Of a stretch of 64,000 nucleotides of DNA, positions 20,764 to 46,213 are shown one piece after another. The notes beneath the pieces are model-generated. The model was not told where the DNA came from. It was given only the letters and a program-made list of their open reading frames with translations, and made no database searches. Location of the stretch: the sequence record PQ511146.1, one strand, 5' to 3'. Position 1 is the stretch's first letter; the number at the start of each line of letters is the position of its first letter. The position numbers and the translations under genes are program-made. The stretch is from Escherichia phage NHEP1.

Positions 20764-23270
20764 CACACAAGTCTGCTTTGCAGGTTTAGCTGCTCAGCTA
20801 AGGTTCTGGAGGCACCTATAACATCTTCCAACTAAATTTCCTACCAACACAGTTACTTACCTACCACACATGACTGTTTGCTTGTTTAGTGAGCAGTCAT
20901 CACTTGACATTCTTGCCTATCTTGATAAAATTAAGTTCTTCTCTTTTCTTTTACCGAGTAATTCGGGTTTTCTGTTCTCTTCGGTTTGAAGGGGTATGGA
21001 GATACACCTGAGTGAACAGGGTGAACAACCGAACCTTTAGCTATGGCATTAGCATGGCGAAGCGGACGGGTGACGAAAGAGGGGCCGGAGGACACCAGTC
21101 ACTGCCATATAGTATATGGGTGATAACCTGAAGAGTCTGAATAAGTGTTTAAGTACCAGTCAGAGGAAAAGGTGAATGGTAGCCGAAGGGGGAGGGGGGT
21201 TTCTTATATCTTTAATTTGTATACTTTATATACACTTGTAAACCAATTCAATTAGAATCTGTTTACCACACAAAGGGGATGGAGACAAATATCACCTATT
21301 AAACTTGAATTATTTATAGAAAATACCACAACACCCGTTAAGTCTTTGATTTTACACACAAATCTTACAAATATCCTACCTCCACATTTAACATACTTGT
21401 AACATATTCCATATCCTACCTGCCTGATCAATTTACTCCATCACATTCCCACATTTTCCCTGTCTGTACTACCCCACCCCCGCCGGGAGTCCCGTCATAT
21501 CTGGCTTTCCAGCAAATATCACACCAACAAATATCATCACCTGAAGAGGGTTTCATCCCATAATACCTGCCTTACCTGAAGAGCGCTTCATACACCACGT
21601 AAATTTTTTAATTGACCCCTCCCCGCCGCCAGAGAGGTTGGCTTTTCCCACACAGGCCTGAAGAGTCAGCCAGAAATATCTGAACAGGCAGTTATGTCCC
21701 GATTTTGTGCTTGTCCTACAGGAGTGCTGCCAGGCGGACGGAATGGGAATACTTCTCATTCTTATAATAATTCTCAAATATCGAGGCAGTGAGGCAAATT
21801 AATAGGCCAGGCCGTTCACACAGTGGCACAACATTTGCAATCTATCTTGTGTGGATGAATGAGAATACCTATCATTGTGAGAATGGTTATCATTACGGGC
21901 AATTTAACATAATACCCATTATGCGCACCACTGGCGATACATACAGGGATTGATAACATGGGTTACTGTTTACGCATATAACAATTATATTTCTTACTAT
22001 TTGTGTGGGATATAGTTAGCAACCAATAGATTAGATATTGACCTGCAGACTTCTGACCGTCCAGACGTCTAAACGCCCACACAACAAGGATTATACATAC
22101 ACTCCTGCATGTAACCAGGGCCGCAAAAATGCTACCATACCAGTTTGTAAATTTTTCATGCAGCACTTGACAAAGAGGAGAAAAACTTGTCTGACACAAT
22201 GTGACAATTTTGTCACTTTTGACACTTTTACCTTTGACACAATATGACACAATAACGGCTGTTACTATTCCATATCTCACTGTTTACGCCTGAATAGTTT
22301 ACGCAAAAACTGTTTACACAGAGATGATAAGCCATGCCATTCGTTTGCATGAAAACAATTAACAAGATAACAATTGACAAGCTAACAGCCAACAAGCTGA
22401 CAGTTAATAAGTTAATAAGTTATGACATAATATAAAAGCAGGGCAACTATTAGAAGATCTATAGTTGCCTTGCTTGTTATGTCATGATTAACTAAATACA
22501 AGGCAACTATGATCTGAATAATAGATTGCAGACAAACTATCACGGGGGTGATTGTTACTGCTTTTATATTATGTCGCGACTCCGTCGCGCCATGCCATTC
22601 GTTTGCATAGTTGCCTTATTGTTACAGGTAAAACAATTACATTATTAATTATTTCTTATCTTTCTCTTAGTCATCTAATGATTCCAGTCAGTATAGTAAT
22701 GTACAGTAAACATTAGACGACTAAATATTTCTCTGTGTATAATAACTTATCGTGACAATTTCGAACTGTTTACGAAAAATGTTGACACCTGAGCTGATTT
22801 ATGTTATGCAGTTTACACGAATAATTATTTTATGCAGGTATTGACTATTCCGTTATTCTGTGGTTGGAATAAATACTTTGCAGACTATAGAATGGCGTGC
22901 GTACGTGAATTCTGAGATCTGGCGGCTATAGTTATACTCGATTTTTCGCGTAGAACACGCTTTCGATGCTGTGTAAGTGTATGACTTATAAAGATTTTTA
23001 GTTGTTGACAAGATATTGGAGATGTGCATCAGGTTAAAATTTGTGCAATAGCGGCATTACGTGCACTTTTGGGAGAGAAAACGGGTAAAAATGGCCCTGC
23101 TACCACACAATGAAAGATTATGCAATAGTTATTTTCCATGTATATTTGTACAGTATGTGGGATTGATGGCTAGTCAATTATTCCACTTGCCAGGTAGGGC
23201 CGTTTATGGTAGGAGAAGAGCAGACAAAAAGAAAGGGGCCTTTAAGCCCCTTGATAATTCAGTTAAGAAA
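20764..23270. repeat. ORF-poor, repeat-dense non-coding zone at the convergence of plus and minus transcription blocks
   Basis: No convincing ORF of 100 aa or more; at least five short repeat families seen (see findings). Confidence 0.6.
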
Positions 23271-32971: not shown

Positions 32972-33035
32972 GATTTTATCCTCTTAGTGTCTTTTGTGCT
33001 TTTAGTGTATTTGGTGTCAGAATGTATGTCAATAC

Positions 33036-33233
33036 TTATTTTTTATTAAACCAGTGGTTGATCTGGCCTTTTGTCAGGGCGCAACGATTAAGCTGTTGCC
33101 GGGTGTAGCTCTGACCGCGACGGAATTTATAAAGGCCTTGCCCGTTGTTGATGGTTACGTCCACCTGGCAAATCATTTGATCGGTGACGGCCTGGCGAGT
33201 GTTGCGACGTACTTTAATTCCGTAGGCGTTCAT
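33036..33233 (-). CDS. Hypothetical protein
   Basis: Track ORF 65 aa. Confidence 0.45.
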   Translation of the reverse strand: MNAYGIKVRRNTRQAVTDQMICQVDVTINNGQGLYKFRRGQSYTRQQLNRCALTKGQINHWFNKK

Positions 33234-33633
33234 GATTTTTATCCTCTCTGTTAATTAGTGTGGTGTTGTTCACCTTGCGAGGATAAGAATAACAGAACTA
33301 TCCGAGCTGTCAACCATTAGTTAGAATTATTTTTTGGGCAGAATTCTCCAGCCGCCGCCACTGCCAGGTTAACCATCATTTTTTCGTACTCTTCTTTATG
33401 TTCCAACGCTCCCGCCATAGCCTTTTCAACCAGGGCGATAGCCTCAGCGTCATTAATCGCTACATTTTCCAGGGGGGATCCTATTACCTTTCATTTTTGT
33501 ACCTCTTCTTCAGTTGTTGCCTACCCTGCATAGGCCCACCAGGTTTGCAAGCCTTCATTCTCCCCTACCTGGTCAGTTAGGTCCTGCCAGGCTGGCCCCG
33601 CCAGGTTGCAACGGTTAGCGCATCAGGTTAGAA

Positions 33634-34510
33634 TTTTTTTTTTTTTTGAAAGTGTTGACAGCGGCCCCGCCAGGTGGCACAATATACCTATCGAAAGGAC
33701 GGCAGGCACCGGTGACGGGGGAGACAACCACCGGGGATGGGCGCTGCATAAAATGAGAACGGTTATCATTATCATTTAAAAATTTATGCAAAAAATCCTT
33801 GCTCTCTTTGTCCTGTGTGATACTATAATAACAAGCCGGGGCAACAGGGGCCGGGAGACAATCACCGGGGGTGCCTGTTATTCTGCAAACGAGAATGATT
33901 ATCATTCAAAATTCTAAATGAGAACTTCTCGCATTTCATAAATTTAATTAGCATGCTAATTACCTACCGTGACAATTCTATATAAAATAATACCTCCTTA
34001 AGTATTTCCATATACAAATTTTAAAAATCCATTTCCGAAAACGAAAAATCGCTTTCGTTCCCAAAAATTTCAGGTCGAGCGCCGGAACGATTTCCAGAAA
34101 ATCTGATTCAGAAAACGAAAAACAGATCGAGTACTGAGAAATTTATCGAGAAAAATTTTCAGAAAATTCAATCTTTGAAATGAAAAACAGATCGAGTACT
34201 GAGAGAGATGTGCCTAAACTTCCTGATAATGATGGGCTTATTGTTATAAAAGGCCAGAAGTAAGTTGGGAAAGTTCTGGTAGATGGGTGAGAGTGTGTGC
34301 GGAAAATCTGGAACGGTGATTTGAAGTACGGTGCGAATGATAGAATGAGTAGCGCAGCTTATCGTGCCTGTCTTGAAAAAATCCATTTTAGTTTTCGATC
34401 CATTTTCTGATTTTCTAAGAATTTTAAAATATCCGACTAGGTAAAATATCAAAAGGAGGAAATCTATTTTAGAAACCCTCCTTATACTTGATGTGCCAGG
34501 GATTTTCAAG
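33634..34510. repeat. Repeat-dense non-coding hub: T14 tract, split hairpin element (copy B), direct repeats, 18-bp perfect palindrome
   Basis: T-run 33634-33647; GGGAGACAAYCACCGGGG twice; TAATTAGCATGCTAATTA at 33945-33962; GAAAAACAGATCGAGTACTGAGA twice. Confidence 0.55.
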
Positions 34511-34512
34511 TA

Positions 34513-34842
34513 TCAACTATCTTTGTTTTTAGGCTTGTACATGCGTAGAGGTATAGTTTTTATAACACTCCATCTCCCCAGCCCTTCCCAGTTCCAGTTG
34601 TGGGCATGGTACCCGGTTATGCATGCACTGCTGGCGTGATCATAAGCATAAGAGAACGCTATGCGTAACAAACGAGGCCAGTCTTTCCATGGTTGTGGTC
34701 CGTAAGCTTTTCTCCAACACCGACACAAACTAAATGTCTCAAGAATAGGCAGGATAACAAATCCATACACCGCCACCAGAATGGTCAGCGCAATGATTGT
34801 CAGGAATACATACCCTGCAGTTGAAATAATGATCTCTGTCAT
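34513..34842 (-). CDS. Hypothetical protein with N-terminal TM segment
   Basis: Track ORF 109 aa. Confidence 0.45.
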   Translation of the reverse strand: MTEIIISTAGYVFLTIIALTILVAVYGFVILPILETFSLCRCWRKAYGPQPWKDWPRLLRIAFSYAYDHASSACITGYHAHNWNWEGLGRWSVIKTIPLRMYKPKNKDS

Positions 34843-35042
34843 TTGTCATCCCCTTTCTTACGGATATAGATGTGAGAGCCTGCTTGTACATAAATTTCCC
34901 GACCATCTTCTGCAAAGATGTGGAATACACGGTCACCTTCGTATTCAATACGAGATATCTTCATAACGGTCTTCCCACCCGGAATGCGGATCTCATCGCC
35001 TACAGCAATGTTCCATGCAGATTTAAGCTTAAACATCGTCAC
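34839..35042 (-). CDS. Hypothetical protein
   Basis: Track ORF 67 aa. Confidence 0.45.
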   Translation of the reverse strand: MTMFKLKSAWNIAVGDEIRIPGGKTVMKISRIEYEGDRVFHIFAEDGREIYVQAGSHIYIRKKGDDK

Positions 35043-35274
35043 CCTCCTTTGGGAACTTGAACTCTGGCATAGCCATATACGCTACAACAGGGTTGTGATC
35101 AAAGTAGAACTGACCATTAATTATCCCAGTTTTTTGCACATAGTCACCAGATCCTGCAAGAACAACCTCGCAAGCTCCGAAATCTACATTGCCATTCTCG
35201 TCAGCCATGGCTACGATATACTTTCCGAGAGGCATGTTTTTAACGCCGTCTACAAATGTCCACCCTTTGTTCAT
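35029..35274 (-). CDS. Hypothetical protein
   Basis: Track ORF 81 aa. Confidence 0.45.
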   Translation of the reverse strand: MNKGWTFVDGVKNMPLGKYIVAMADENGNVDFGACEVVLAGSGDYVQKTGIINGQFYFDHNPVVAYMAMPEFKFPKEGDDV

Positions 35275-35294
35275 ACTTTATCTCCTGCACTTTC

Positions 35295-35627
35295 TTAAGG
35301 TAACCAGTAAACAATCTCGCCTTTCAGTTCCATACCATTACCTACATAAATTTGCCAGCCATCCATCTTAGCTGCTGCAGGAGTAAAATCTTCAGAGCCT
35401 CTAACCTCTTTCCATGAGCCATAGTCTGGCTGCCAGATATAAAATCCACCTTCTTTGTCCCATGCGCAATACACCACGTTCAACCAGTTACCCATTGCAA
35501 CAATGGTGGGCCGTGGGAATAATACATCTACAGATGCGCAGCAATATCGGGTATCTTTTAAATTGCAATCCCAAAAGATGTCTGCCAGTGTGGCGGCGAT
35601 AGCTTTACGTCTTTCTAATGTTACCAT
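35295..35627 (-). CDS. Hypothetical protein
   Basis: Track ORF 110 aa. Confidence 0.5.
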   Translation of the reverse strand: MVTLERRKAIAATLADIFWDCNLKDTRYCCASVDVLFPRPTIVAMGNWLNVVYCAWDKEGGFYIWQPDYGSWKEVRGSEDFTPAAAKMDGWQIYVGNGMELKGEIVYWLP

Positions 35628-35637
35628 GGTACGATAC

Positions 35638-35829
35638 TCACTTGTTGTTAAGAAGTTCTAAAACTTTCTGTTTTACTTTATCAAGATCTGTTGATTCAAA
35701 AACTGTGCGATATCCCCAACTTTGCCCATAGGAATGACTGCAATCACCGTAACACCATTGCTCAACCTGATAGTATTCAAGGAATGGGTGCTGTCTAACT
35801 ATGATACCGTCTCGATTAAAAATTACCAT
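35638..35829 (-). CDS. Hypothetical protein
   Basis: Track ORF 63 aa. Confidence 0.45.
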   Translation of the reverse strand: MVIFNRDGIIVRQHPFLEYYQVEQWCYGDCSHSYGQSWGYRTVFESTDLDKVKQKVLELLNNK

Positions 35830-35892
35830 AATTTATCCCTCTCTGCTAGTTTATGTTTATATTATATACCGCAGTTTTCAGATGTCAACCTT

Positions 35893-36144
35893 TTACAGGT
35901 TACTCCAGTATACTCGGCATTTACACTTCGGGCAATGAGGTTCTTTTATGTAATAACCGTCAGTCTTTGGAACACTTTTTGGTGCAGTTTTAAGATTGTA
36001 CCGAGTAAAGCAACGGAAGCAGGTTACCTCTCCTACCTGTTGATCGTTTATCCACTCGCCAGAGTAAAGCTCTTTCTTGTTTCTCATAATTATCTCCCCA
36101 AGCCTCTGCAATCTTCTACCAGAATCTCCAGCCAGAAAGCACAC
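35893..36144 (-). CDS. Small Cys-rich zinc-ribbon-like protein
   Basis: CFRCF...CPKCKC motif pairs. Confidence 0.5.
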   Translation of the reverse strand: MCFLAGDSGRRLQRLGEIIMRNKKELYSGEWINDQQVGEVTCFRCFTRYNLKTAPKSVPKTDGYYIKEPHCPKCKCRVYWSNL

Positions 36145-36338
36145 GGGAACACTTTGATGATTGAATCTTCACTCGGCTCGGAAGTTCTTTTTCCGTAGGG
36201 CAGGTAGAAATACCCTCCTGCAGATTCAAACATGGCTCCTTCTGTTGTATCTATCACAGCTAGAATTAAGATTTTAGTCTCCATAGTGCTCCCCTGTCTT
36301 AATCGTTGTGGTGACTATACCACCTTAAAATATAGCTG

Positions 36339-36878
36339 TCAACACTCTTTGTACTCCACCACGATAATATCTATATCAAAAGTGGCAAGGTTAATAATGT
36401 CCTCTACATGTTCCCACTTCAAACCGCCTATGCCGCACCCGATCTTAGGGATGTAGAATGGTAAAATCGACCCCTCAAATACTTCATTGACTCGCTCAAA
36501 TCCTTTCAGTATTGAGAAATATTCAGCATTAGGCCCTGGGTAGAACTGAGTATACAGATTTATTCCGTAGACAATACCTCTCGGAGATAAGTGCTCCCAG
36601 CGGGAGAACGCGCCCAGTTTACTTAGGCAACCGTGCATAGTCATTTTATCAGCTTCCAATGCTTGAGGGAACTCACGGGCAATCTGTTTTGCTACACCCT
36701 TACCCATTGTGTGGAAGCAGTTACAACCGTGGATCAGGTGACCATCACCGCTCTTAAAAAGGGAGATTAAATCTCCCTCTACAGTATCAATAATCACGAT
36801 ATTCCAGCTCCTCTTCCACAATTTCAAAAAACTCAGTCCAGCACTGTGGCATATTGGAGTTACCGAAGTGGCTTTCAT
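36339..36878 (-). CDS. Macro-domain-like protein (putative ADP-ribose binding/processing)
   Basis: GDLI...HGCNC...MGKGVAKQI and later GCGIGG glycine-rich motif, in the order expected for macro domains. Confidence 0.5.
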   Translation of the reverse strand: MKATSVTPICHSAGLSFLKLWKRSWNIVIIDTVEGDLISLFKSGDGHLIHGCNCFHTMGKGVAKQIAREFPQALEADKMTMHGCLSKLGAFSRWEHLSPRGIVYGINLYTQFYPGPNAEYFSILKGFERVNEVFEGSILPFYIPKIGCGIGGLKWEHVEDIINLATFDIDIIVVEYKEC

Positions 36879-37212
36879 AGTAAAGGTTTTTACCGCTCGG
36901 AAGATAAAAATCTGTTACCTCATAAAATCCACAATCGTCGCACTCTCCCTCTTCAAACTTGGCCTTAACCTTAATGCCGAGGAAGGTGAAAAGTTTATGG
37001 ATATCTTCGGTCTCGAACTCCCAATTAATGTTGTTTTCCGCATCGGTGTAAAACTGGATCAGTAGGCCATCATCCATTTTTCCAAAATATTCTGTGAAGT
37101 AGCTTCCTTCCCAGAAGTCTTTGTGACAAATAATATCCATGCGCTTGCCCATAATAAAGGTGTGGGCGTTTCGTGCATCGTCACGAATCAGTTTTGGCAT
37201 TTCATAAATCAT
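36787..37212 (-). CDS. Hypothetical protein
   Basis: Track ORF 141 aa. Confidence 0.5.
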   Translation of the reverse strand: MIYEMPKLIRDDARNAHTFIMGKRMDIICHKDFWEGSYFTEYFGKMDDGLLIQFYTDAENNINWEFETEDIHKLFTFLGIKVKAKFEEGECDDCGFYEVTDFYLPSGKNLYYESHFGNSNMPQCWTEFFEIVEEELEYRDY

Positions 37213-37277
37213 CGTAGTTCTCCAGGATCAATAGGTGGTGCTACAGGAAGATCATAAAACATGGCGATCACATTCTC

Positions 37278-37475
37278 TTACGCAGGGATTGCTTCAAACA
37301 GGCCGTTATCGATACCATCCTTCAAGTAAAGATTATACTCTATGTCAGTATCTGTGTAAAGGGCAGCATCTAGCATTCTATCTGTTAGTCCATCCATTGG
37401 GTGGAGAAACCACCACCCACGCCAGTCAAAGTAACAACCTGGTGCATCTTCTCTCACACGGATTCGATAAATCAT
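37278..37475 (-). CDS. Hypothetical protein
   Basis: Track ORF 65 aa; AGGAGG RBS. Confidence 0.4.
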   Translation of the reverse strand: MIYRIRVREDAPGCYFDWRGWWFLHPMDGLTDRMLDAALYTDTDIEYNLYLKDGIDNGLFEAIPA

Positions 37476-37571
37476 GGGCAGTGGCCTCCTGTTAGTTACA
37501 CATCCCAGTTTTCTTCGTTCATTACATCCTCCAGCTCAACAAGGTTATAATTGCACACCTTACAACCCGTG

Positions 37572-37988
37572 TCAACAGAAAACTTCAACAAATTCTTCCA
37601 CAGTTTTAATGTCGTGGGAAAAAGGTTTGCGGCTATAACGGGCAATAGCACTGTCAACCACCGCCCGGTACTCCAAATCTTCAGAATATTTCATGAAGCA
37701 TTGCAACGTCTCTGGACAGATAGCCAGATAGCTCCACCACCCCTCTTCAGATTGGTAGTCAAATCCCATACTCTCTAGCCACGAAGCGTATACACCTGCA
37801 CCTTCCAGCCAGTGAGTATTTTCATCAAGGAACTTGTTCACAGTCATGTGAGCTTCTAAGCATTTATCCAACTCTTTTCCGTTAACCAGCCACGCACTGA
37901 CAGTGGCGCATCCAAGGTCCACAGATTGGGTTGATAGATTGTATTGGTCATAGTTCTCAGGTTTAACAATGATATCTTCTAATGTCAT
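37572..37988 (-). CDS. Hypothetical protein
   Basis: Track ORF 138 aa. Confidence 0.5.
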   Translation of the reverse strand: MTLEDIIVKPENYDQYNLSTQSVDLGCATVSAWLVNGKELDKCLEAHMTVNKFLDENTHWLEGAGVYASWLESMGFDYQSEEGWWSYLAICPETLQCFMKYSEDLEYRAVVDSAIARYSRKPFSHDIKTVEEFVEVFC

Positions 37989-38007
37989 TTTTCAGTCCTC
38001 TCTATAC

Positions 38008-38035
38008 AAAAATGCCCCACCCTTTCGGGCAGGGC
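38008..38035 (-). terminator. Rho-independent terminator (minus strand)
   Basis: Minus strand GCCCTGCCC-GAAA-GGGTGGGGC followed by ATTTTTGT; identical hairpin recurs at 49129-49150. Confidence 0.6.
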
Positions 38036-38050
38036 TATGTTGACTAGATG

Positions 38051-39277
38051 TTAAAAAGGTATGTCATCATCAAAGGCGTACTGTGCCGGATTCTGATCCA
38101 TCGGGTCGTCTTCCGCATCATCTACAGGAGGAGCGTCTACAGTGTTTTGCTGTGGGGCGGCTTCCTGTTTGGCAGCTTGAGGCTCTTGATGGTCAGTGAC
38201 TCCAGCACCGTTCTTGATCCAATCATACAACGGTTCAGCAAGATTAGTCAAGACATCTTTTGCCTCTGCAGTAATTGCTACTGCAAAATCATCAACTTTC
38301 GTTTTCTTGTCAATACGGCGACAAGCGTTCAATACCGCATTACCAACACTGGCACCTACTTCATCTTCAGTTCGGTTAGTGGCTTGAGCGTACTCTTTCT
38401 TAAGCTCGATGGTGACCACGTGCAGTGTTTTAGCCACATCTAAAGGACTGTCAATCTTAAACCCGCGATCCAGGATGATCTGCAATGCATTGATACTGTG
38501 CCCTGTCTCTACACCGATGGGGTCGTAAGAGGATTTACGCTTACCACCAGAACCTTGTGTACCGTTCTCTGCTTTAGGCGGGTAGGCCTTGAAGCCGCTG
38601 ATAATATTCCCGGTGTCTTTGTCAACAATAGCTGCAACACGACCACCTACCACCAGGTCTTTAAGCTGCTCATCAGAGACAACCATAGCACCTTCACCAA
38701 TCTTGTGATCATTGACAGTAACCACGTTGCCAACAATCTGAGTCACATCGCCATAGATGCGTAAAACGTCCTGATTGGCATTCTGCTGAGGTTTCTGCTT
38801 CTGGCCTTGTGATTGTGCACCTTGTTGCTGTTTTTGCTGCTGAGTCGCTGCTGGAGCCTCTCCTGCACCCAGCTTGACCATCTTAGCCAGGGAGCCTTTG
38901 TAATAGATCTTACCGTTATGCTCGTTTGCCTTCAAAGGGATATTTACGATCCATCCTGGCGTTACAGTTTCCCACTTGTCATCAATTTTAACAGAGACAG
39001 AGTCTTGATGACCCGGTTTAAGCAGCTTATCACCCATACTGATCCAAACTTCTTCACCACCTTGAAGCAGGTTATCAGAGGAATCCAGTTCAGAAATCAG
39101 TAAAGAGATGGTGTGGCTGGATTCAATTTTCTTACCTTGCCACACAGTGGTTTTAATACCTGTTGTAGGATCAGCACCTTTGATAGGCTTGATGCTGACA
39201 CGTTTAATCATGCCGTGAGCCAGTAAAACAGTTTCACGCGGATTCATCGGGTTAGCGAATTGTTGAATAACGCTCAT
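38051..39277 (-). CDS. Hypothetical protein with Gln-rich linkers and bacterial SSB-type C-terminal tail (DDDIPF)
   Basis: 408 aa; C-terminus ...AQYAFDDDIPF; N-terminal region unlike a canonical SSB OB fold by eye. Confidence 0.6.
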   Translation of the reverse strand: MSVIQQFANPMNPRETVLLAHGMIKRVSIKPIKGADPTTGIKTTVWQGKKIESSHTISLLISELDSSDNLLQGGEEVWISMGDKLLKPGHQDSVSVKIDDKWETVTPGWIVNIPLKANEHNGKIYYKGSLAKMVKLGAGEAPAATQQQKQQQGAQSQGQKQKPQQNANQDVLRIYGDVTQIVGNVVTVNDHKIGEGAMVVSDEQLKDLVVGGRVAAIVDKDTGNIISGFKAYPPKAENGTQGSGGKRKSSYDPIGVETGHSINALQIILDRGFKIDSPLDVAKTLHVVTIELKKEYAQATNRTEDEVGASVGNAVLNACRRIDKKTKVDDFAVAITAEAKDVLTNLAEPLYDWIKNGAGVTDHQEPQAAKQEAAPQQNTVDAPPVDDAEDDPMDQNPAQYAFDDDIPF

Positions 39278-39753
39278 TATTTATCTCCTTGTTCTTCGTT
39301 AGTGTTTGCCGTGTGTGCAAACCCTGCTTGAATTAATTTGTCCTGAACTTGAGCCAACAGGCCCATTGCAAAACTTGTGGTCCCAGAGAGGGCCATCAGC
39401 ATATCTCGTTGTTGAGCTACCCAACCTAAGGCATAGTCCAAACGACGATATTTTTCTTCTTCACGCAGAGCCTGGAATAATTGTTCAGCCTCTGGCTGTT
39501 GTGTAAGCTCCTGAAGTCTTCCCATGAAAGAAGAAAGCACTAGCAGAAGAGACACTTGATCTTTACTTAACCCTAAGAAAAATTCTTGAGGTTGTTCTTG
39601 CTCGTTCATCGCAACCGACGCTTGATCGTTCATTTGTTCCATTATGGAATCTCCGATTTTATTTGAACAACATAGAAGGAGACACCATTTTAGCATCTCC
39701 TTCTGCAAATTACAACAGGTATTTGTTAGCCAATTACTTCGAAAGTACCCCAA
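39277..39753 (-). CDS. Hypothetical protein
   Basis: Track ORF 158 aa. Confidence 0.5.
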   Translation of the reverse strand: MGYFRSNWLTNTCCNLQKEMLKWCLLLCCSNKIGDSIMEQMNDQASVAMNEQEQPQEFFLGLSKDQVSLLLVLSSFMGRLQELTQQPEAEQLFQALREEEKYRRLDYALGWVAQQRDMLMALSGTTSFAMGLLAQVQDKLIQAGFAHTANTNEEQGDK

Positions 39754-39971
39754 CTCCCGTTCAGCAGGCAGGTGATCGGATCACCATCATCGTCAATTAT
39801 TTCAAAGTTTTCAACATCCAGAATATGGTCATCGAACACAATGCTCTTATCGCCACCACCAGAAATAACAGCGTATTCCTTACCTTGTGTTAGGTTCTGG
39901 CAACCTTTGCCGCCGAAACCAACTTCAACACAACGTACTTTCTGTCCTGCGCGAGCAACTACTCCAGCCAT
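39726..39971 (-). CDS. Hypothetical protein
   Basis: Track ORF 81 aa. Confidence 0.45.
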   Translation of the reverse strand: MAGVVARAGQKVRCVEVGFGGKGCQNLTQGKEYAVISGGGDKSIVFDDHILDVENFEIIDDDGDPITCLLNGSWGTFEVIG

Positions 39972-39988
39972 CTTAAGGTCTCCTGATA

Positions 39989-40309
39989 TTAATCGTCAAG
40001 TTCAAAATAGATTTTAACAGCTTCATCAAAGATTGGAATCCCGATGTTGTTGATAAGCTGCCAAACTACCATATCTTTTCCTGGATCTGGGAGAATGTCA
40101 ACCTTTCTCCATGCGCTATATATCCAGTTCGGACCGCCTTCTGCACTAACTGGTAGATTTTCACCAGCTTCTTGTAAATACTTATACAGCAAAAGGTATT
40201 CTGGGTACTCTAGAACACTGTCCTCTGTAGTATATAGCAGTTCACGGTATACTTTCAAGAATCCTGTTGGGTTGATGTTTTCAGTCTTCATTTGCTGCTT
40301 CTCCTGCAT
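39989..40309 (-). CDS. Hypothetical protein
   Basis: Track ORF 106 aa. Confidence 0.5.
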   Translation of the reverse strand: MQEKQQMKTENINPTGFLKVYRELLYTTEDSVLEYPEYLLLYKYLQEAGENLPVSAEGGPNWIYSAWRKVDILPDPGKDMVVWQLINNIGIPIFDEAVKIYFELDD

Positions 40310-40685
40310 TCATCAGATCTGCCATAGCGTCACCAACGAAGAGGACAACCACGTCGTTGACAGCGTCAGCATCATCTTTATTGATGTTGCTGAATTTGGG
40401 GCACACTGCAATGACCATATAGACCCCGTTGCCCAACTGAACAGTGCGTGTAGTGCACATTAGTGTGGTGCTTGTGCCTTCTTTAAAGGCAAATCCTTGC
40501 AGACGTTCTTCCAGAGAGTCACCTGTGGATTTCAACAAGGCAAGATCGCCCAATGCGTAGGTAGTGTCCTCATAGGTCAGTCCAGAGGTCAATGTTGCCT
40601 TTCCATCAGAAACTATAATAACCCCATCGGCACCGTCAAGCTCAGAGGCTTCAAAGATATTAATATCCCAAATGTTTTTCATCAC
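40281..40685 (-). CDS. Hypothetical protein
   Basis: Track ORF 134 aa. Confidence 0.5.
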   Translation of the reverse strand: MMKNIWDINIFEASELDGADGVIIVSDGKATLTSGLTYEDTTYALGDLALLKSTGDSLEERLQGFAFKEGTSTTLMCTTRTVQLGNGVYMVIAVCPKFSNINKDDADAVNDVVVLFVGDAMADLMNAGEAANED

Positions 40686-41002
40686 GCTTCCTCGTCATCT
40701 AATGGGTTGAAGATTTCACCGAAGTATTCTAAGACTTCCAGCTCACGGGTGGTGCAGAAAACACAGTCCCCGTTGTCATCTTCGATAACGGCCTCTTTAC
40801 CAAGAACATCAACTTCAAATTCGTCGTTTAACAGAACGGAACCTGTGTAAACTTTATCTGCCGTGCAGTCCCGAAAAGCAGAGTCCTTCTCCAAGTAGTC
40901 TGGCTTAACCTTGGCTTTAATTCGTTGATATTGTTTGGTCATTGCTGTGGTCCCCTTTCGTTTTGATAGGGCCATTATATTAGGCCCTATCGCTATTGTC
41001 AA
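40682..41002 (-). CDS. Hypothetical protein (paralog of 41006..41260)
   Basis: Shared AF(R/K)DCT and DD(N/E)GD.V(F/W)CT motifs. Confidence 0.5.
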   Translation of the reverse strand: MTIAIGPNIMALSKRKGTTAMTKQYQRIKAKVKPDYLEKDSAFRDCTADKVYTGSVLLNDEFEVDVLGKEAVIEDDNGDCVFCTTRELEVLEYFGEIFNPLDDEEA

Positions 41003-41005
41003 GTA

Positions 41006-41260
41006 TTAATGCTCAGGTTTTACAAAAACTACTTCGTTAACAGTGCACCAGACAGAATCCCCTTCATCATCTTTAAAGGTAAGACACTGGGCCGAGTTTT
41101 CCAACTCATCAAGTTCTTCTTGTGATAAATAGGTCCCTTCTTCCAGAAGGGCTTTTACCAGAGGGTTCTCACAAAACTCTGCTTCATAAATTGCACCGAG
41201 TGTGCAATCTTTAAAAGCTCGGTCATTTGCAACGCATTCTGGCTTCAAAGTAATTTTCAT
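41006..41260 (-). CDS. Hypothetical protein (paralog of 40682..41002)
   Basis: Shared motifs with the upstream neighbour. Confidence 0.5.
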   Translation of the reverse strand: MKITLKPECVANDRAFKDCTLGAIYEAEFCENPLVKALLEEGTYLSQEELDELENSAQCLTFKDDEGDSVWCTVNEVVFVKPEH

Positions 41261-41335
41261 CTTGGCGGTCTCCTTAATTATTTAAAATCAACGCTCTGTC
41301 TGTGTGGGGTATCTTACATCTACCCCAACTTGTTG

Positions 41336-41734
41336 TCAACGACTATTTTCAATCATCCACCAAGGATCGAGATAAGTTTGTTGACTTTTTGCCCACTGGC
41401 AAACTTCATTGTACATCTGGATCTCTTTGTCCGTCAGTTCACGAATAGGCTCATCTATACCCTCATTTTTGTGGTAATCCCAGTCGGCATCGATTTCCCA
41501 CAACCATGACTTACGATCTTCACGTTTACGCACACAGAAGTCCCCAGGACGGCCTGCCAGTGCATTTAGGAACTCGTTCTCCGCTCGCTCCTGGAGAATA
41601 CTAAGGAGCAAAACGTTGGAGCATGACCGTAAAATATGCTTCAGCTCACAATCATCGATCTCAACTTCAATACGTTGCTTGACTGTGTGGGTACCTTTTA
41701 CTAACATTCTACCTCCTCTAGACGAACTCTGCAA
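41336..41734 (-). CDS. Hypothetical protein
   Basis: Track ORF 132 aa; consensus promoter upstream. Confidence 0.5.
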   Translation of the reverse strand: MQSSSRGGRMLVKGTHTVKQRIEVEIDDCELKHILRSCSNVLLLSILQERAENEFLNALAGRPGDFCVRKREDRKSWLWEIDADWDYHKNEGIDEPIRELTDKEIQMYNEVCQWAKSQQTYLDPWWMIENSR

Positions 41735-41912
41735 GGGTTGTGTTGTTCACTGCACCGCAGTAGATGGAGTATCCCAACCCGTTAGGGTGTAGAAACCACG
41801 GCACACCTTGATCATCCTTCACGTATACATCTCCATTTTCCGTAAAGGGCCAATACTCTTCTCCAAGGGTAAAATACCTACTCATACCTTCAGCCAGATA
41901 CTTTACTTTCAT
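41718..41912 (-). CDS. Small protein, DDxGxxW(F/Y)L paralog family
   Basis: KDDQGVPWFLHPNGLGYSIY motif shared with the next two ORFs. Confidence 0.45.
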   Translation of the reverse strand: MKVKYLAEGMSRYFTLGEEYWPFTENGDVYVKDDQGVPWFLHPNGLGYSIYCGAVNNTTLAEFV

Positions 41913-42136
41913 AGATCCTCTTCAACAGCTACAAACTTGGCAAGTAGGGTGGTTCCATAGATATGATACTCACCGTTTGCCAGATGGGAGATAAACCAGG
42001 CAACACCGTCCTCGTCTTCGATCATATTGTTTCTGCGATCCTCGTCGTAATAAACCTTGTAGACCTTACCTTCTTCAAAGAATGATAGGTCTGTCATCTT
42101 CTCTTCTACAAATGTCGCTTTAACCAAAGTTGTCAT
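41909..42136 (-). CDS. Small protein, DDxGxxW(F/Y)L paralog family
   Basis: DEDGVAWFISHLANGEYHIY. Confidence 0.45.
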   Translation of the reverse strand: MTTLVKATFVEEKMTDLSFFEEGKVYKVYYDEDRRNNMIEDEDGVAWFISHLANGEYHIYGTTLLAKFVAVEEDL

Positions 42137-42507
42137 TGATCTGCCTCCTTCTTGTTGAGCCGGAACACTGCAATAATAGCATTTCCAAGATGCAGTGTCA
42201 AATCATTTCCCAGATACCATAACATTCCACGGTCATCTTTAATGAAAGGGTAACAATCCGGTGCCTTCCAGACATTATACACTTTGCCGACCTGAAAGAA
42301 ATCAGGCCCTGTTGGAATTTTAGTACCGGGCCATACTTGGGACACCTGAACGCATTCTACCTGCATAATGACAGGGATAGTCATGGAGGTAAATGTTTTT
42401 GTTGGTTCTACTACCATAAAAGTCTCCTCTCTGTCTAACAACACTTCCGTGTGTTGATAGTTTACATTAGTGACAATCACCCCAGTTACGACCGCACAAG
42501 TATTCAC
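42133..42507 (-). CDS. Small protein, DDxGxxW(F/Y)L paralog family
   Basis: KDDRGMLWYLGNDLTLHLG. Confidence 0.5.
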   Translation of the reverse strand: MNTCAVVTGVIVTNVNYQHTEVLLDREETFMVVEPTKTFTSMTIPVIMQVECVQVSQVWPGTKIPTGPDFFQVGKVYNVWKAPDCYPFIKDDRGMLWYLGNDLTLHLGNAIIAVFRLNKKEADQ

Positions 42508-45500
42508 CTGTGATCTGGAACGGAACGCCCATCATTTTAGAAGCCTGCCAGAAGCAATGCACCACCATTTCGCCCACAGGGCTCCAGATAAGCTCAAGCT
42601 TTCCGTCATCATTCAAGATAGGATCGTATACCGTATTTCCATCCTTGTCAACCACTTCGTTTCCGTCCTCATCTTTGCGTGCCTTTTTGTACTTATGACC
42701 GTCGAACACATGAAGTTTAGCCTCTTGTTGGGCTTTAAATGTTTCCAGCTCTTCAATTGTGTCGAAGGTGTATACGGTTTTATACTTAGGTGTGTCAGGC
42801 ACTTGAAGCTGATATTCGTCATGGTAATAGATAATACGACGAACACCCTCATCATACCATCCACGCTTCACCATCTGGTGGTGCATGAGGATTCCGACCA
42901 AGTCGCACAACGATGCACCGCCATTTTGCTGATATGCATTAAGCAAAGAGTGTTTAGAGCGGGTCCAAATGGCATGCCCGTCAAAAGAGTAGATAAATTT
43001 CTTACCTGTTGCTTCCCAGAATTTCTCCAGATCCTCTTTACGCCCCTTAAGGCCCGGGTTGGCATCCCAGAGAGCATCAATTACTCTCTGTCCAAGTTCT
43101 GGAGAGATATCTAGCATATCTGCAACTTTATCTTTTTGTGCCCCGTACATAACCCCATATGTGACAGGCTTACCATCGTTACGGGAAATCTCCTTGCCTG
43201 CTACAGAAGAGTAAGCTTTGGCGTTATTACAGTTACCGCACACTGCCACTTTACCATTCCTTCTCACAATGATTGCTCCAGAAGGGACGGTAACGCAATA
43301 AACCAAAGAACCGCTCACCTCGACAGACTCTTTAGATAGTGTCAGCAACCCTGCTCTCTGTTTGCTACCAATCGTGATTCTGTGCTGTACGGAACGACCT
43401 TTTTTGTGAATCGCCACCGTATTATTCCGTAAACCACACTGAGTAGCCAGCGCAGACACAACCTCTACAGATTTCTTCCTGCACCCGGCCTGAGAGTAGT
43501 AGGCAACTTTTCCACCTTCGGAAGATACCCACCCGTCCCAGTTAGATAAAGAAGCTATAAACAGGTTTTTAGATTCTTTATCAAGGTCCATCAGGTTGTA
43601 GGTGAAATCCTTATTGCTGTCCAAAAACTCAAATACCCAGGACGGAACGTGGAATTGGAACCTTCTCGCCAGTAAGCCCCCTTTTGTGGTTTTCCCGCTC
43701 TGCTCTACATAACTAAGGCTTAGAGCAGAAAAAGTATCTAAAAGCGTTGCAACTTTTCTGCCCTTCCCGACCTGAATCCTGCACACGATGCTGCCGTCCT
43801 TATTTGTATGCAAGTGCCCATCATCGTGAATAGCAATAAGCAAATTAACCTGGGCAGGAGATAAGGTTGTATTCCCATAAAACTCTGCCGCATGGATAAA
43901 CCTTCTTCCTGAATTAGACCCTTTACCTGCTTTCAGGTCTTTTGCCAAATCTTCAAACAATTTATTGCTTCTGTGATCCACGGTCAGCATCCTGTGTTGA
44001 TCTGTAACCATAAAATCCACACTGCTGTTGTGGAAATGATACATATCCCCACAATAACTACGCTTAACGTAATTTAATGGAGTAACAAGGTTCATCGACG
44101 AGGTGTTGTGATCGTACTGGAACACCTGTGTTCCCGGATCAAGATCTTCAAACCTCACCCACCCTTTCTCCGTGAGAATTTGTGTATCTCCTGAATAACA
44201 GTGTGCATCGCCGTTACTTACAACATCATAATACAGACCGTTGTCAAACTCAAAGGCACCCCAGGCCCCGATGAGCTGCTCTAAGTTGGACCCGTCAATA
44301 CCGATCTCAAAGTATCCTGGAGGAACACCCCACAGACTACGCATCTCTTTACCCATAACCACTTTAGGAGATGGTTTAGGCATGTTTGCACAAATACTAT
44401 GTTTCTGTCTGGAAGTGTTTGTTAATCCAGAACTTTTAGCAGGAAGCTTGTGGTCAATCTTCAAACGTGGATGATTAAGAAGACCAGTATCAACCTTATC
44501 TTCCTTGATTGGATCAAGGACCGATCTGCGGTTTCGCAATGATAACCACAAAACGATATCTTTAGCCATCTCTCCGTTCAATTTTTCAAGATTCGGGCAC
44601 AGGTGTCCAAACGTATCTTTCAGTTGCGGAGAAGTAATAAGCGCTCTGGCTTTTCTACGTATCTTCCCAAACACTTCCTTTTTAATCCTTTCTGAGTTAG
44701 GGAAGCTTCGGAACTTATGCACAGTTGTCTGGAACTTGGCATCAGTTTTGTTCCAGAAGTTGATAATTAGATCACAATACTCTGACTCCAAAAGCTCGTC
44801 CATATATGCATATACTCGTGCATCAACATCTGCATCAGGTAAAGCTTTCTTCTTGCTGTCTTTAGTTACATCTTTAGTTCTCCACATTGTTGGGAGCCAA
44901 CCAGCACTGATCAGGTATCGCTTGATGTCGTCCTGATTGCTGATTTTCATAGGTATCTTGCAGTCAGGCATTCGCTTCTGCTGTAGGTCACTTATCGCCT
45001 GATCCATCAGCTCTTTAGGTAAAGGGTGTGGTGTAGAAGTTCCTTTGATATACCCCCTCAAGAAATCAGCCATCTTATCGGGGTCTTTACAGCCCATCTC
45101 TTCACACCATTTTATCCCCATCTTACTTACATCCCCTGTGGAGGTAAATGCTCGCTTAGGAGGAGCTTTGAACTCTAAAGCACTCATGTCCACAGGGTAG
45201 CCAAGCTTGTCTTTTAACCATTTCCAACCATTATTGGAGATTGTCCCATCTTGGTTAAACGGCTTTTCAGGGAACTTAGGCCGCTGAGACATTGATAACT
45301 CTTTTAAAGGAAGTTGTGGTTCAACACGATCAGCGATCTCTTTCATCCACGCATCGCAACGGTCACGTAAAGCAATAGCCCCATCTATGTCGAAATACAC
45401 CCCCTGTCGAGCCTGCAGCTCCATCAGGAAGTGCTGTAACATGCCTCGGCGTAATGCGTTCTTCCAGGTGATCTTCTTGAAGCCTTTCGGCTTCTCTTTG

Positions 45501-46213
45501 GCAGGATCGTACATAAAGTTCTGCATGTCAGATTTGCCGTAGAATACACCTTTTGATTCCGCTACCAACTCCTTCCAGAGCAACTCCTGGATGATAACGT
45601 CCTCGAACACACGATCCACATACTTCCACAGTGGAAGCTCACGCCAGTCATCGATTTGAACTTTCTGGTTACCAAGGGCATAGCCCCATGCCATAAGGCC
45701 ATGAGGCCCAACAGGCTGCATTTTCTTGGTAACTGGATTGAATACTGCGTCCGGACAACCTTTTGGCAAAGGGCGGTCAGGCCACAAGATTCGGCTCATC
45801 GCTAACGTATCAAACAGATTAACCGGGTGGTCGTTGATAGTCCCCATGCATTTAGGATCACGGAACATATCAAAATGAATACCGGATAATCTTTCCATCA
45901 GCATAAAGTCGTAACTGTAGCAGTTATGACAGTTCAAAGCCGTAGGTGACCAGTCTGAATTGCCTGTAAGCCAACCTTCCAACTCTGAAAAATCTGCTAT
46001 GCGAGCCTCAAAATCTGTATAAAGGGTCTTCTTTGCCAGAATGAAGTTCTTAGCTTTCTCCACATCCTCTTCAGAGTAGTGTGTGCGGTCATTTAGAGGA
46101 AGGAACAGCATAAAACGGTTCTTATTCAGCTCTTTAAACAAACCGCAGTGATAATAAAGATCTGGGTCTTCCAGCAGGCCAGAGGCCTCAAAATCGAACG
46201 ACCACATGCTCAT
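42467..46213 (-). CDS. DNA polymerase, family A (T7 gp5-like), intein-containing
   Basis: N-terminal exonuclease motif FDFEASGL and YHCG; motif A-like GIDGSNLEQ...FDNG; motif B-like NAK...YGVMYGA; motif C-like YYHDEYQ; AAGGAG RBS. Confidence 0.85.
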   Translation of the reverse strand: MSMWSFDFEASGLLEDPDLYYHCGLFKELNKNRFMLFLPLNDRTHYSEEDVEKAKNFILAKKTLYTDFEARIADFSELEGWLTGNSDWSPTALNCHNCYSYDFMLMERLSGIHFDMFRDPKCMGTINDHPVNLFDTLAMSRILWPDRPLPKGCPDAVFNPVTKKMQPVGPHGLMAWGYALGNQKVQIDDWRELPLWKYVDRVFEDVIIQELLWKELVAESKGVFYGKSDMQNFMYDPAKEKPKGFKKITWKNALRRGMLQHFLMELQARQGVYFDIDGAIALRDRCDAWMKEIADRVEPQLPLKELSMSQRPKFPEKPFNQDGTISNNGWKWLKDKLGYPVDMSALEFKAPPKRAFTSTGDVSKMGIKWCEEMGCKDPDKMADFLRGYIKGTSTPHPLPKELMDQAISDLQQKRMPDCKIPMKISNQDDIKRYLISAGWLPTMWRTKDVTKDSKKKALPDADVDARVYAYMDELLESEYCDLIINFWNKTDAKFQTTVHKFRSFPNSERIKKEVFGKIRRKARALITSPQLKDTFGHLCPNLEKLNGEMAKDIVLWLSLRNRRSVLDPIKEDKVDTGLLNHPRLKIDHKLPAKSSGLTNTSRQKHSICANMPKPSPKVVMGKEMRSLWGVPPGYFEIGIDGSNLEQLIGAWGAFEFDNGLYYDVVSNGDAHCYSGDTQILTEKGWVRFEDLDPGTQVFQYDHNTSSMNLVTPLNYVKRSYCGDMYHFHNSSVDFMVTDQHRMLTVDHRSNKLFEDLAKDLKAGKGSNSGRRFIHAAEFYGNTTLSPAQVNLLIAIHDDGHLHTNKDGSIVCRIQVGKGRKVATLLDTFSALSLSYVEQSGKTTKGGLLARRFQFHVPSWVFEFLDSNKDFTYNLMDLDKESKNLFIASLSNWDGWVSSEGGKVAYYSQAGCRKKSVEVVSALATQCGLRNNTVAIHKKGRSVQHRITIGSKQRAGLLTLSKESVEVSGSLVYCVTVPSGAIIVRRNGKVAVCGNCNNAKAYSSVAGKEISRNDGKPVTYGVMYGAQKDKVADMLDISPELGQRVIDALWDANPGLKGRKEDLEKFWEATGKKFIYSFDGHAIWTRSKHSLLNAYQQNGGASLCDLVGILMHHQMVKRGWYDEGVRRIIYYHDEYQLQVPDTPKYKTVYTFDTIEELETFKAQQEAKLHVFDGHKYKKARKDEDGNEVVDKDGNTVYDPILNDDGKLELIWSPVGEMVVHCFWQASKMMGVPFQITGEYLCGRNWGDCH
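43232..44200 (-). mobile_element. Intein (about 323 aa) with LAGLIDADG-like endonuclease motifs inside the polymerase gene
   Basis: Begins CYSGDTQIL right after GDAH; T..H block; LIAIHDDGHL and FIASLSNWDGW motifs; ends ...VAVCGN before +1 Cys; extein boundaries by alignment-by-eye. Confidence 0.75.

Follow-up and report, generated by a model that had tools for sequence, protein, structure and literature searches.

A stand-alone macrodomain protein of 152 amino acids (aa) is encoded on the minus strand of a 64,000-nt stretch of the Escherichia phage NHEP1 genome (PQ511146.1; hereafter the window), and its sequence places it in the same phage clade as T4 Tk.4, the anti-DarT factor AdfM. By analogy with AdfM, the protein probably, although by no means certainly, removes thymidine-ADP-ribose from DNA and would thereby act as an AdfM/Tk.4-type counter-defence against DarTG2; the DNA-borne substrate, early expression and the counter-defence role are what we infer from this relationship. 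The picture is largely known in its parts, the domain call being already public for near-identical proteins and the function already published for the T4 homologue. The ECP32 protein, 99.3% identical, is annotated as 'macro domain protein' in GenBank, other relatives are annotated as phosphatase, Poa1p-like or O-acetyl-ADP-ribose deacetylase, and homologues of the family occur in 2,802 of 50,697 phage records.

Gene start, fold and macrodomain class

The original prediction had placed the gene at 36339-36878, a minus-strand open reading frame (ORF) that encodes 179 aa when counted from its ATG in the ORF list. The ORF is real, but this start lies about 81 nt too far upstream, and the gene most likely occupies 36339..36797 (minus strand; 152 codons plus stop) with a GTG start at 36797-36795. 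We prefer this start because the annotated coding sequence in the near-identical phages ECP32 and FFH2 is 459 nt, database homologues are 150-155 aa long, the alignment with T4 Tk.4 begins at residue 1 of the short (152-aa) form and the 27-codon N-terminal extension of the 179-aa ORF has no counterpart in any homologue compared; ATG 36878 was rejected as the start on these grounds. The in-frame extension (36798..36878, minus strand) lies inside the upstream gene (36787..37212), which is overlapped by the first 27 codons of the longer ORF, and is probably not translated within the macrodomain protein. On inspection of the sequence, a Shine-Dalgarno-like GAGGAG (36808..36813, minus strand) stands 10 nt upstream of the GTG, and the GTG start overlaps the stop codon (TGA) of the upstream gene by 11 nt.

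The call of a macro domain, made earlier from the letters alone, is borne out by profile searches and by structure prediction. Pfam Macro (PF01661) matched at 31.3 bits (E=2.1e-7; profile positions 1-118 of 118), above its gathering cut-off of 22, and PHROG 335 ('phosphatase') matched at E=5.9e-61. An AlphaFold2 model computed with 92 homologues as input is confident (mean pLDDT 97, pTM 0.91) and has the predicted three-layer alpha/beta/alpha fold of a macrodomain, which is the outcome that the original prediction had named as its structural check. In Foldseek searches of the PDB with this model, human TARG1 (OARD1) ranked first (E=2e-10, TM 0.78/0.85) and was among the top structural matches at TM 0.76-0.85; the DarG macrodomains of Thermus aquaticus and Mycobacterium tuberculosis (Mtb) came next, followed by Poa1p, BT1257 and SCO6735, all at probability 1.00. 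TM scores ranged over 0.75-0.85 for TARG1 and DarG, and over 0.6-0.85 when Poa1p and viral macrodomains were counted too.

A similar order of classes was obtained when the family profile was compared with the PDB. The best match was Streptomyces coelicolor SCO6735 (PDB 5E3B; 5e-18), followed by Mtb DarG (1e-17), BT1257 (2e-17), TARG1 (5e-17), T. aquaticus DarG (3e-15) and Poa1p (1e-14), whereas the coronavirus nsp3 macrodomains (Mac1) reached only 2e-3. The TARG1, DarG and SCO6735 neighbours found by both approaches, with nsp3 far weaker, therefore assign the 152-aa protein to the ALC1-like (TARG1/DarG/SCO6735/Poa1p) class, and an nsp3-type viral macrodomain was rejected on the weak profile match.

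Within this class, we also considered DarG itself. Mtb DarG is the best single-sequence PDB match of the window protein, and the DarG models of NCBIfam (NF048014) and PADLOC were the sole matches in those libraries; the NF048014 score, however, was 43.4 bits against a cut-off of 250, with profile positions 3-143 of 338 matched. DarG, unlike the window protein, carries a C-terminal DarT-binding domain and has an adjacent darT gene. No darT toxin gene was found beside the macrodomain gene, whose neighbours are small phage proteins that all fall in unknown-function PHROGs, with no Pfam match. The score far below cut-off, the missing C-terminal domain and the missing darT together rule out DarG proper.

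Active site and relationship to known macrodomains

The four motifs on which the macro-domain call had been founded (GDL, HGCNC, MGKGVAKQI and GCGIGG) are all present, and in the order originally described. G8-D9-L10 (36768..36776) lies in the first strand, with G8 kept in 76 of 80 related viral loci and position 9 being D or N in every one of them; the strand H23-G-C-N26-C27 (36717..36731) contains the conserved macrodomain asparagine, N26. M31-G-K-G-V-A-K-Q-I39 (36681..36707) corresponds to phosphate-binding loop 1, N80-L-Y-T-Q84 (36546..36560) bears Q84 where DarG and TARG1 have their catalytic Lys, and P117-K-I-G-C-G-I-G-G125 (36423..36449) is the glycine-rich phosphate-binding loop 2 (all on the minus strand). 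Across the 92 homologues, N26, G34, A36, N80, Q84, P117 and G120 are invariant, and H23, G24, C27, M31, G32, Y82, T83, G88, I119, G122 and G125 are conserved in at least 90%; K33 is not conserved in the family, and position 124 is variable (A instead of G124 in 55/80 viral loci).

The residue alignment that the original prediction had called for finds the ADP-ribose-binding and catalytic positions in register, with Gln rather than Lys as the catalytic residue. The ADP-ribose-binding elements (N26, G32-x-G34 and G120-x-G122-x-G124-G125) are present, N26 aligning with N27 of SCO6735 and N23 of PhiKZ AdfM, and loop 2 aligning with PRIGCGLAGG of SCO6735 and BT1257. Q84, which corresponds to DarG K80, aligns with the catalytic lysine of Mtb DarG (FPTK), K84 of TARG1 (ITKK), Gln85 of SCO6735 and the Gln of BT1257 (NMIGQH); the Lys84/Asp125 dyad of TARG1 is thus matched by Q84 and a glycine in the window protein. 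As read from these alignments, the active site is of the Gln (SCO6735) type, without the catalytic Lys of DarG and TARG1. A close relative, the 70% identical macrodomain of contig L011, has Lys at position 84, the only such case among the 80 loci, so this position appears to tolerate either Gln or Lys.

SCO6735 shows what such a site can do. This protein cleaves thymidine-linked ADP-ribose from DNA without the lysine of DarG and TARG1, protects Streptomyces from DarT and is inactivated by the substitutions Q85A, Q85E and N27S; the proposed mechanism is water-mediated, with the Gln holding the distal ribose in place, and both SCO6735 and TARG1 also de-ADP-ribosylate proteins (PMC9411070). A bacterial chromosomal protein with about 23% identity to the window protein in the Foldseek structural alignment, SCO6735 shares with it the site arrangement of H-x-C-N, GKG and Gln in place of the catalytic Lys, and its loop 2 (RIGCGLAGG) is the counterpart of the glycine loop of the window protein. 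Just as the window gene stands alone, SCO6735 is a DarT antidote encoded outside any DarTG operon (PMC9411070). The two differ in the loop that follows the Gln, which has 13 residues in SCO6735 and 8 in the window protein, and SCO6735 K89, a DNA-contacting residue within this loop, has no equivalent in the window protein.

A second experimentally supported DarT antagonist, PhiKZ gp104 (AdfM), clears DNA of DarT2 marks in vitro and relieves the toxicity of DarT2, and its N23 mutant is reported to lose activity (PMC13309987). Like the window protein (26% identity, E=5e-6), gp104 is a free phage macrodomain with a macro fold of the ALC1-like class and the conserved Asn, but in gp104 and the DarG2 macrodomains (PDB 5M31 and 5M3I) the catalytic Lys is retained (FPTK, compared with YTQ in the window protein), and gp104 groups with DarG and not with the Tk.4 clade.

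The relative characterized by genetics, T4 Tk.4, aligns with the window protein over its full length (41% identity, E=7e-43, 126 bits). HIDEN-SEQ found a conditional requirement on DarTG2 for one T4 gene only, tk.4, and a clean knockout is sensitive to DarTG2, for which the gene was named adfM (anti-DarT factor macrodomain); it is non-essential on K-12, and the support for its anti-DarTG2 role is genetic only and comes from a preprint (10.1101/2025.11.20.689424). Both proteins are stand-alone macrodomains of about 152-155 aa that have HGCNCFHTMG, NLYTQ and an 8-residue post-Gln loop of the form FxPGPNxE in common (FYPGPNAE in the window protein, FQPGPNFE in Tk.4), and both are products of small genes of lytic E. 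coli myoviruses without NARP1. They differ in that T4 belongs to the Straboviridae and the window phage to the Vequintavirinae, in that the window gene, unlike T4 tk.4, has no vs, tk or regB nearby, and in that the knockout phenotype on DarTG2 is that of T4 tk.4, whereas the role of the window protein is read from homology.

In a neighbour-joining tree, the Vequintavirus proteins and the L011 protein form the sister group of the T-even Tk.4 clade; the NARP1-associated protein of Vibrio phage Ceto branches outside this grouping, the phage family as a whole has SCO6735 and BT1257 as its sister group, and PhiKZ gp104 falls with DarG. Among 80 related viral loci, the nearest relatives outside the vequintaviruses (70% and 38-47% identity) are encoded in T4-like genomes at the tk.4 locus, which has vs.1/regB on one side and tk on the other. 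The 70% identical case is encoded at positions 5001-5453 of L011, a T4-like IMG/VR contig of 164.7 kb, and the other T-even Tk.4 proteins are far more distant from the Vequintavirus protein at 38-47%; the identity of the L011 protein suggests that the macrodomain has been exchanged between T4-like and Vequintavirus phages.

The remaining characterized phage relative is the Adpp protein of Vibrio phage Gary (36% identity, E=2e-23, 77 bits), an ADPR-1''-phosphate phosphatase that is needed to overcome the RES-domain defence aRES and lets the NARP1 pathway do so (preprint 10.64898/2026.01.28.702374). Adpp, the only biochemically characterized phage member of the Gln-type family, belongs with the window protein to that family, and both keep H-x-C-N-C, the Gln and IGCGxxGG; thus, H23, N26 and Q84, which both carry, cannot tell the substrate. 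The Ceto Adpp-type protein is 87.9% identical to Gary Adpp and has Gln for G24, Gly for T83 and Arg for T30 of the window protein, as well as a post-Gln loop of 15 residues, 7 more than the 8 of the window protein. Yeast Poa1p has an IHxCNC motif like that of the window protein (Foldseek E about 6e-9), and its H23, N26 and S30 align with H23, N26 and T30; the mutant structures deposited for Poa1p include H23A and S30A. At the Gln position Poa1p appears, in a low-confidence alignment, to have Ser. We caution against reading a substrate from the rank of the closest solved structures, an approach that was dropped since the order shifts with the query: Mtb DarG is closest for the window protein, BT1257 and Poa1p for T4 Tk.4, and TARG1 for Adpp.

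Genomic setting in the Vequintavirus genome

The window phage belongs to the vequintaviruses, the rV5-like myoviruses of E. coli with genomes of about 136 kb. When the 4.5 kb at 35000-39500 were used as a query, 151 phage records matched, 111 of which covered at least 80%, and ECP32 was 97.7% identical in DNA over the same interval. Downstream of the genes for DNA polymerase and helicase, many small genes follow one another on the minus strand, the macrodomain gene among them. The gene just upstream (36787..37212, minus strand; 141 aa, PHROG 8157), to which the macrodomain gene is translationally coupled, was considered as a functional partner and rejected: it has no Pfam match, and it adjoins the macrodomain gene in the close relatives L007 and L008 but not in L009 or L010. 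Because the adjacency is kept in close relatives only, this gene is probably not a functional partner.

A sigma-70-like promoter (TTGACA-17-AATTAT with an upstream TG, 10/12 consensus match; 37547..37575, minus strand) precedes three consecutive genes, the last of which is the macrodomain gene. Sigma-70-like matches are enriched on the coding (minus) strand, numbering 31 compared with 18.6 +/- 4.3 in shuffles, and, as matches to a consensus, they are consistent with transcription of the block by host RNA polymerase. Strong sigma-70 consensus promoters are spread through the small-gene block at 33000-42500 on the minus strand, two perfect 12/12 sites (TTGACA-N16/17-TATAAT) occur at 41002-40974 and 35888-35861 on the same strand, and a strong terminator-like hairpin (38035-38014) directly follows a 408-aa gene. 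No structured RNA in the window matched Rfam at gathering thresholds.

Several other features of the window are reported here as observations in their own right. The DNA polymerase ORF (42467-46213, minus strand) encodes 1248 aa, whereas that of ECP32 encodes 925 aa; the two proteins agree at 97-99.7% over residues 1-671 and 996-1248 of the longer one, and residues 672-994 (43229-44200, minus strand) form an in-frame insertion that starts with CYSGDTQILTEKG, ends with VAVCGN and is followed by Cys, and that looks like an intein. In FFH2, the polymerase is split by an HNH endonuclease gene at a site different from that of the window insertion. The region at about 20800-23200, between the plus-strand and minus-strand gene blocks, is gene-poor, with a core rich in AT (GC 0.35-0.37 at 22000-23000), and contains two perfect repeats, one inverted and 18 nt long (22424-22441 and 22558-22575), the other direct and 20 nt long (22331 and 22589); it may be an origin or control region. 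In Bas54, an intergenic region of about 2 kb between divergent genes tolerates no transposon insertions (HIDEN-SEQ, 10.1101/2025.11.20.689424), and this region may correspond to the gene-poor region of the window.

Genes of NAD+ and ADP-ribose metabolism recur elsewhere in related genomes. In FFH2 (locus L005, 18010-19498), a Sir2-like gene is followed by a nucleotide pyrophosphohydrolase gene beside a cluster encoding an RNA ligase, an ATPase and a phosphoesterase, and in Vibrio phages the same kind of cluster lies a few genes upstream of NARP1-AP; since the cluster flanks the Sir2 pair in one case and NARP1-AP in the other, such genes seem to be swapped in and out there. The Ceto (L003, 3135-6149) and Gary (L087, 1629-4659) loci have the three-gene arrangement Adps, Adpp, Namat, in which Adps resembles a ribose-phosphate pyrophosphokinase and Namat a nicotinamide phosphoribosyltransferase. 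A pyrophosphokinase gene adjoins the macrodomain gene in all of about 50 listed Vibrio phage records (at least 62% identity), except 166E36-1 and 5P1b.

Candidate substrates and consequences for the phages

The original suggestion that the protein opposes DarT-type marking agrees with T4 Tk.4 being reported as AdfM and is supported by it, and the accompanying suggestion that it might hydrolyse an ADP-ribose-derived molecule agrees with the phosphatase activity of its relative Adpp. Of these two, we prefer the AdfM-type reading, which we consider probable, over the Adpp-type reading, which we consider unlikely, because of the tree, the tk.4 loci, the shared 8-residue loop and the absence of NARP1. 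Under the preferred reading, the macrodomain gene would most likely be expressed from host-type promoters, and its product would serve as an orphan antitoxin-like enzyme in the infected cell. Where a DarTG2-type defence attaches ADP-ribose to thymidines of single-stranded phage DNA, the macrodomain would grip the modification with N26 and its two glycine loops and cleave the bond between ribose and thymine by hydrolysis, allowing replication to continue. Catalysis would be of the SCO6735 type, with Q84 positioning the distal ribose for water-mediated attack, in contrast to the lysine-based mechanism of DarG and TARG1. The missing counterpart of SCO6735 K89 and the lack of conservation of K33 weigh against this reading, as does the phosphatase activity of Adpp.

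An alternative interpretation is that the protein is an ADPR-1''-phosphate phosphatase resembling Adpp and Poa1p, which would turn the product of a RES-domain NAD+ phosphorylase (aRES) back into ADPR. The homologous Adpp dephosphorylates ADPR-1P and is needed against aRES, the Poa1p-like H23, N26 and T30 fit such an activity and the public annotations of relatives as 'phosphatase' or 'Poa1p-like' point the same way, but we consider this unlikely because Adpp works within the Adps-Adpp-Namat operon, where its gene lies between Adps and Namat, and its product is useful only if NARP1 rebuilds NAD+, whereas the window phage lineage has neither partner. With the Ceto Adps and Namat as tblastn queries, neither the window nor the complete genome of FFH2 gave a match at E<=1, the FFH2 annotations contain no NARP1-type product names, and Adps stood beside the macrodomain gene in 0 of 80 related viral loci; since Adps and Namat are missing from the window and from the whole of FFH2, a NARP1-AP role for the window gene was rejected. 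The window protein is, moreover, nearer in bit score to T4 Tk.4 than to Adpp, and it lacks the extra post-Gln loop residues of the Ceto protein.

Another target for ADP-ribose removal, such as MARylated protein or RNA made by host toxin ADP-ribosyltransferases, or O-acetyl-ADP-ribose made by a sirtuin, for example the phage's own Sir2-like enzyme, is likewise improbable. The activity of TARG1 and SCO6735, top structural and profile matches, on ADP-ribosylated proteins, the deposition of TARG1 as O-acetyl-ADP-ribose deacetylase 1, the similar annotation of some relatives and the Sir2-like protein and nucleotide pyrophosphohydrolase encoded by the related FFH2 would all accord with it. However, about 50 kb separate the macrodomain gene from the Sir2 gene, which belongs to a different transcription block, and this argues against an operon link between Sir2 and the macrodomain; no ADP-ribosyltransferase was seen next to the macrodomain gene, and the sole reported phenotype of a clade member is DarTG2 sensitivity. 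Binder-only macrodomains exist in the superfamily and phage counter-defences of the sponge type exist, but a protein that binds ADP-ribose without catalysis, as a reader or to soak up ADP-ribose-derived signals like a sponge, is very improbable here, given that N26 and Q84 do not vary across the 92 homologues, that catalysis by SCO6735 and PhiKZ AdfM depends on the equivalent residues, and that the relative Adpp is an active enzyme.

Returning to the AdfM-type reading, two preprints from 2025-26 assign one Gln-type family two jobs, anti-DarTG2 activity (AdfM) and a phosphatase activity that counters aRES (Adpp), and these are so far not separable from sequence alone; the window protein offers a clean test case because it has no NARP1 partner. 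A broader and decidedly tentative proposal is that the T-even/Vequintavirus Tk.4 clade represents a Gln-type lineage (SCO6735/Adpp-like) that phages acquired separately from the AdfM of chimalliviruses, which is of the Lys type and derived from DarG, and that it combines two activities, those of a thymidine-ADPr-DNA glycohydrolase and of an ADPR-1''-P phosphatase, or else acts on an undescribed defence modification. If bifunctional, a single 152-aa enzyme would blunt two unrelated defences, DarTG2 and RES-type NAD+ phosphorylases.

Among the Vequintavirinae, Bas60-62 are reported to carry the NADAR protein AdfN against DarTG1. Our literature search on Vequintavirinae and DarTG2 found no report of sensitivity or resistance, and we could assign no entry of the HIDEN-SEQ supplements to the macrodomain gene of Bas54. 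The gene described here would extend the orphan antitoxin-like enzyme strategy of phages to the Vequintavirinae, which have a broad host range and find use in phage therapy and biocontrol, and, if it counters DarTG2, it would help to predict which E. coli strains these phages infect.
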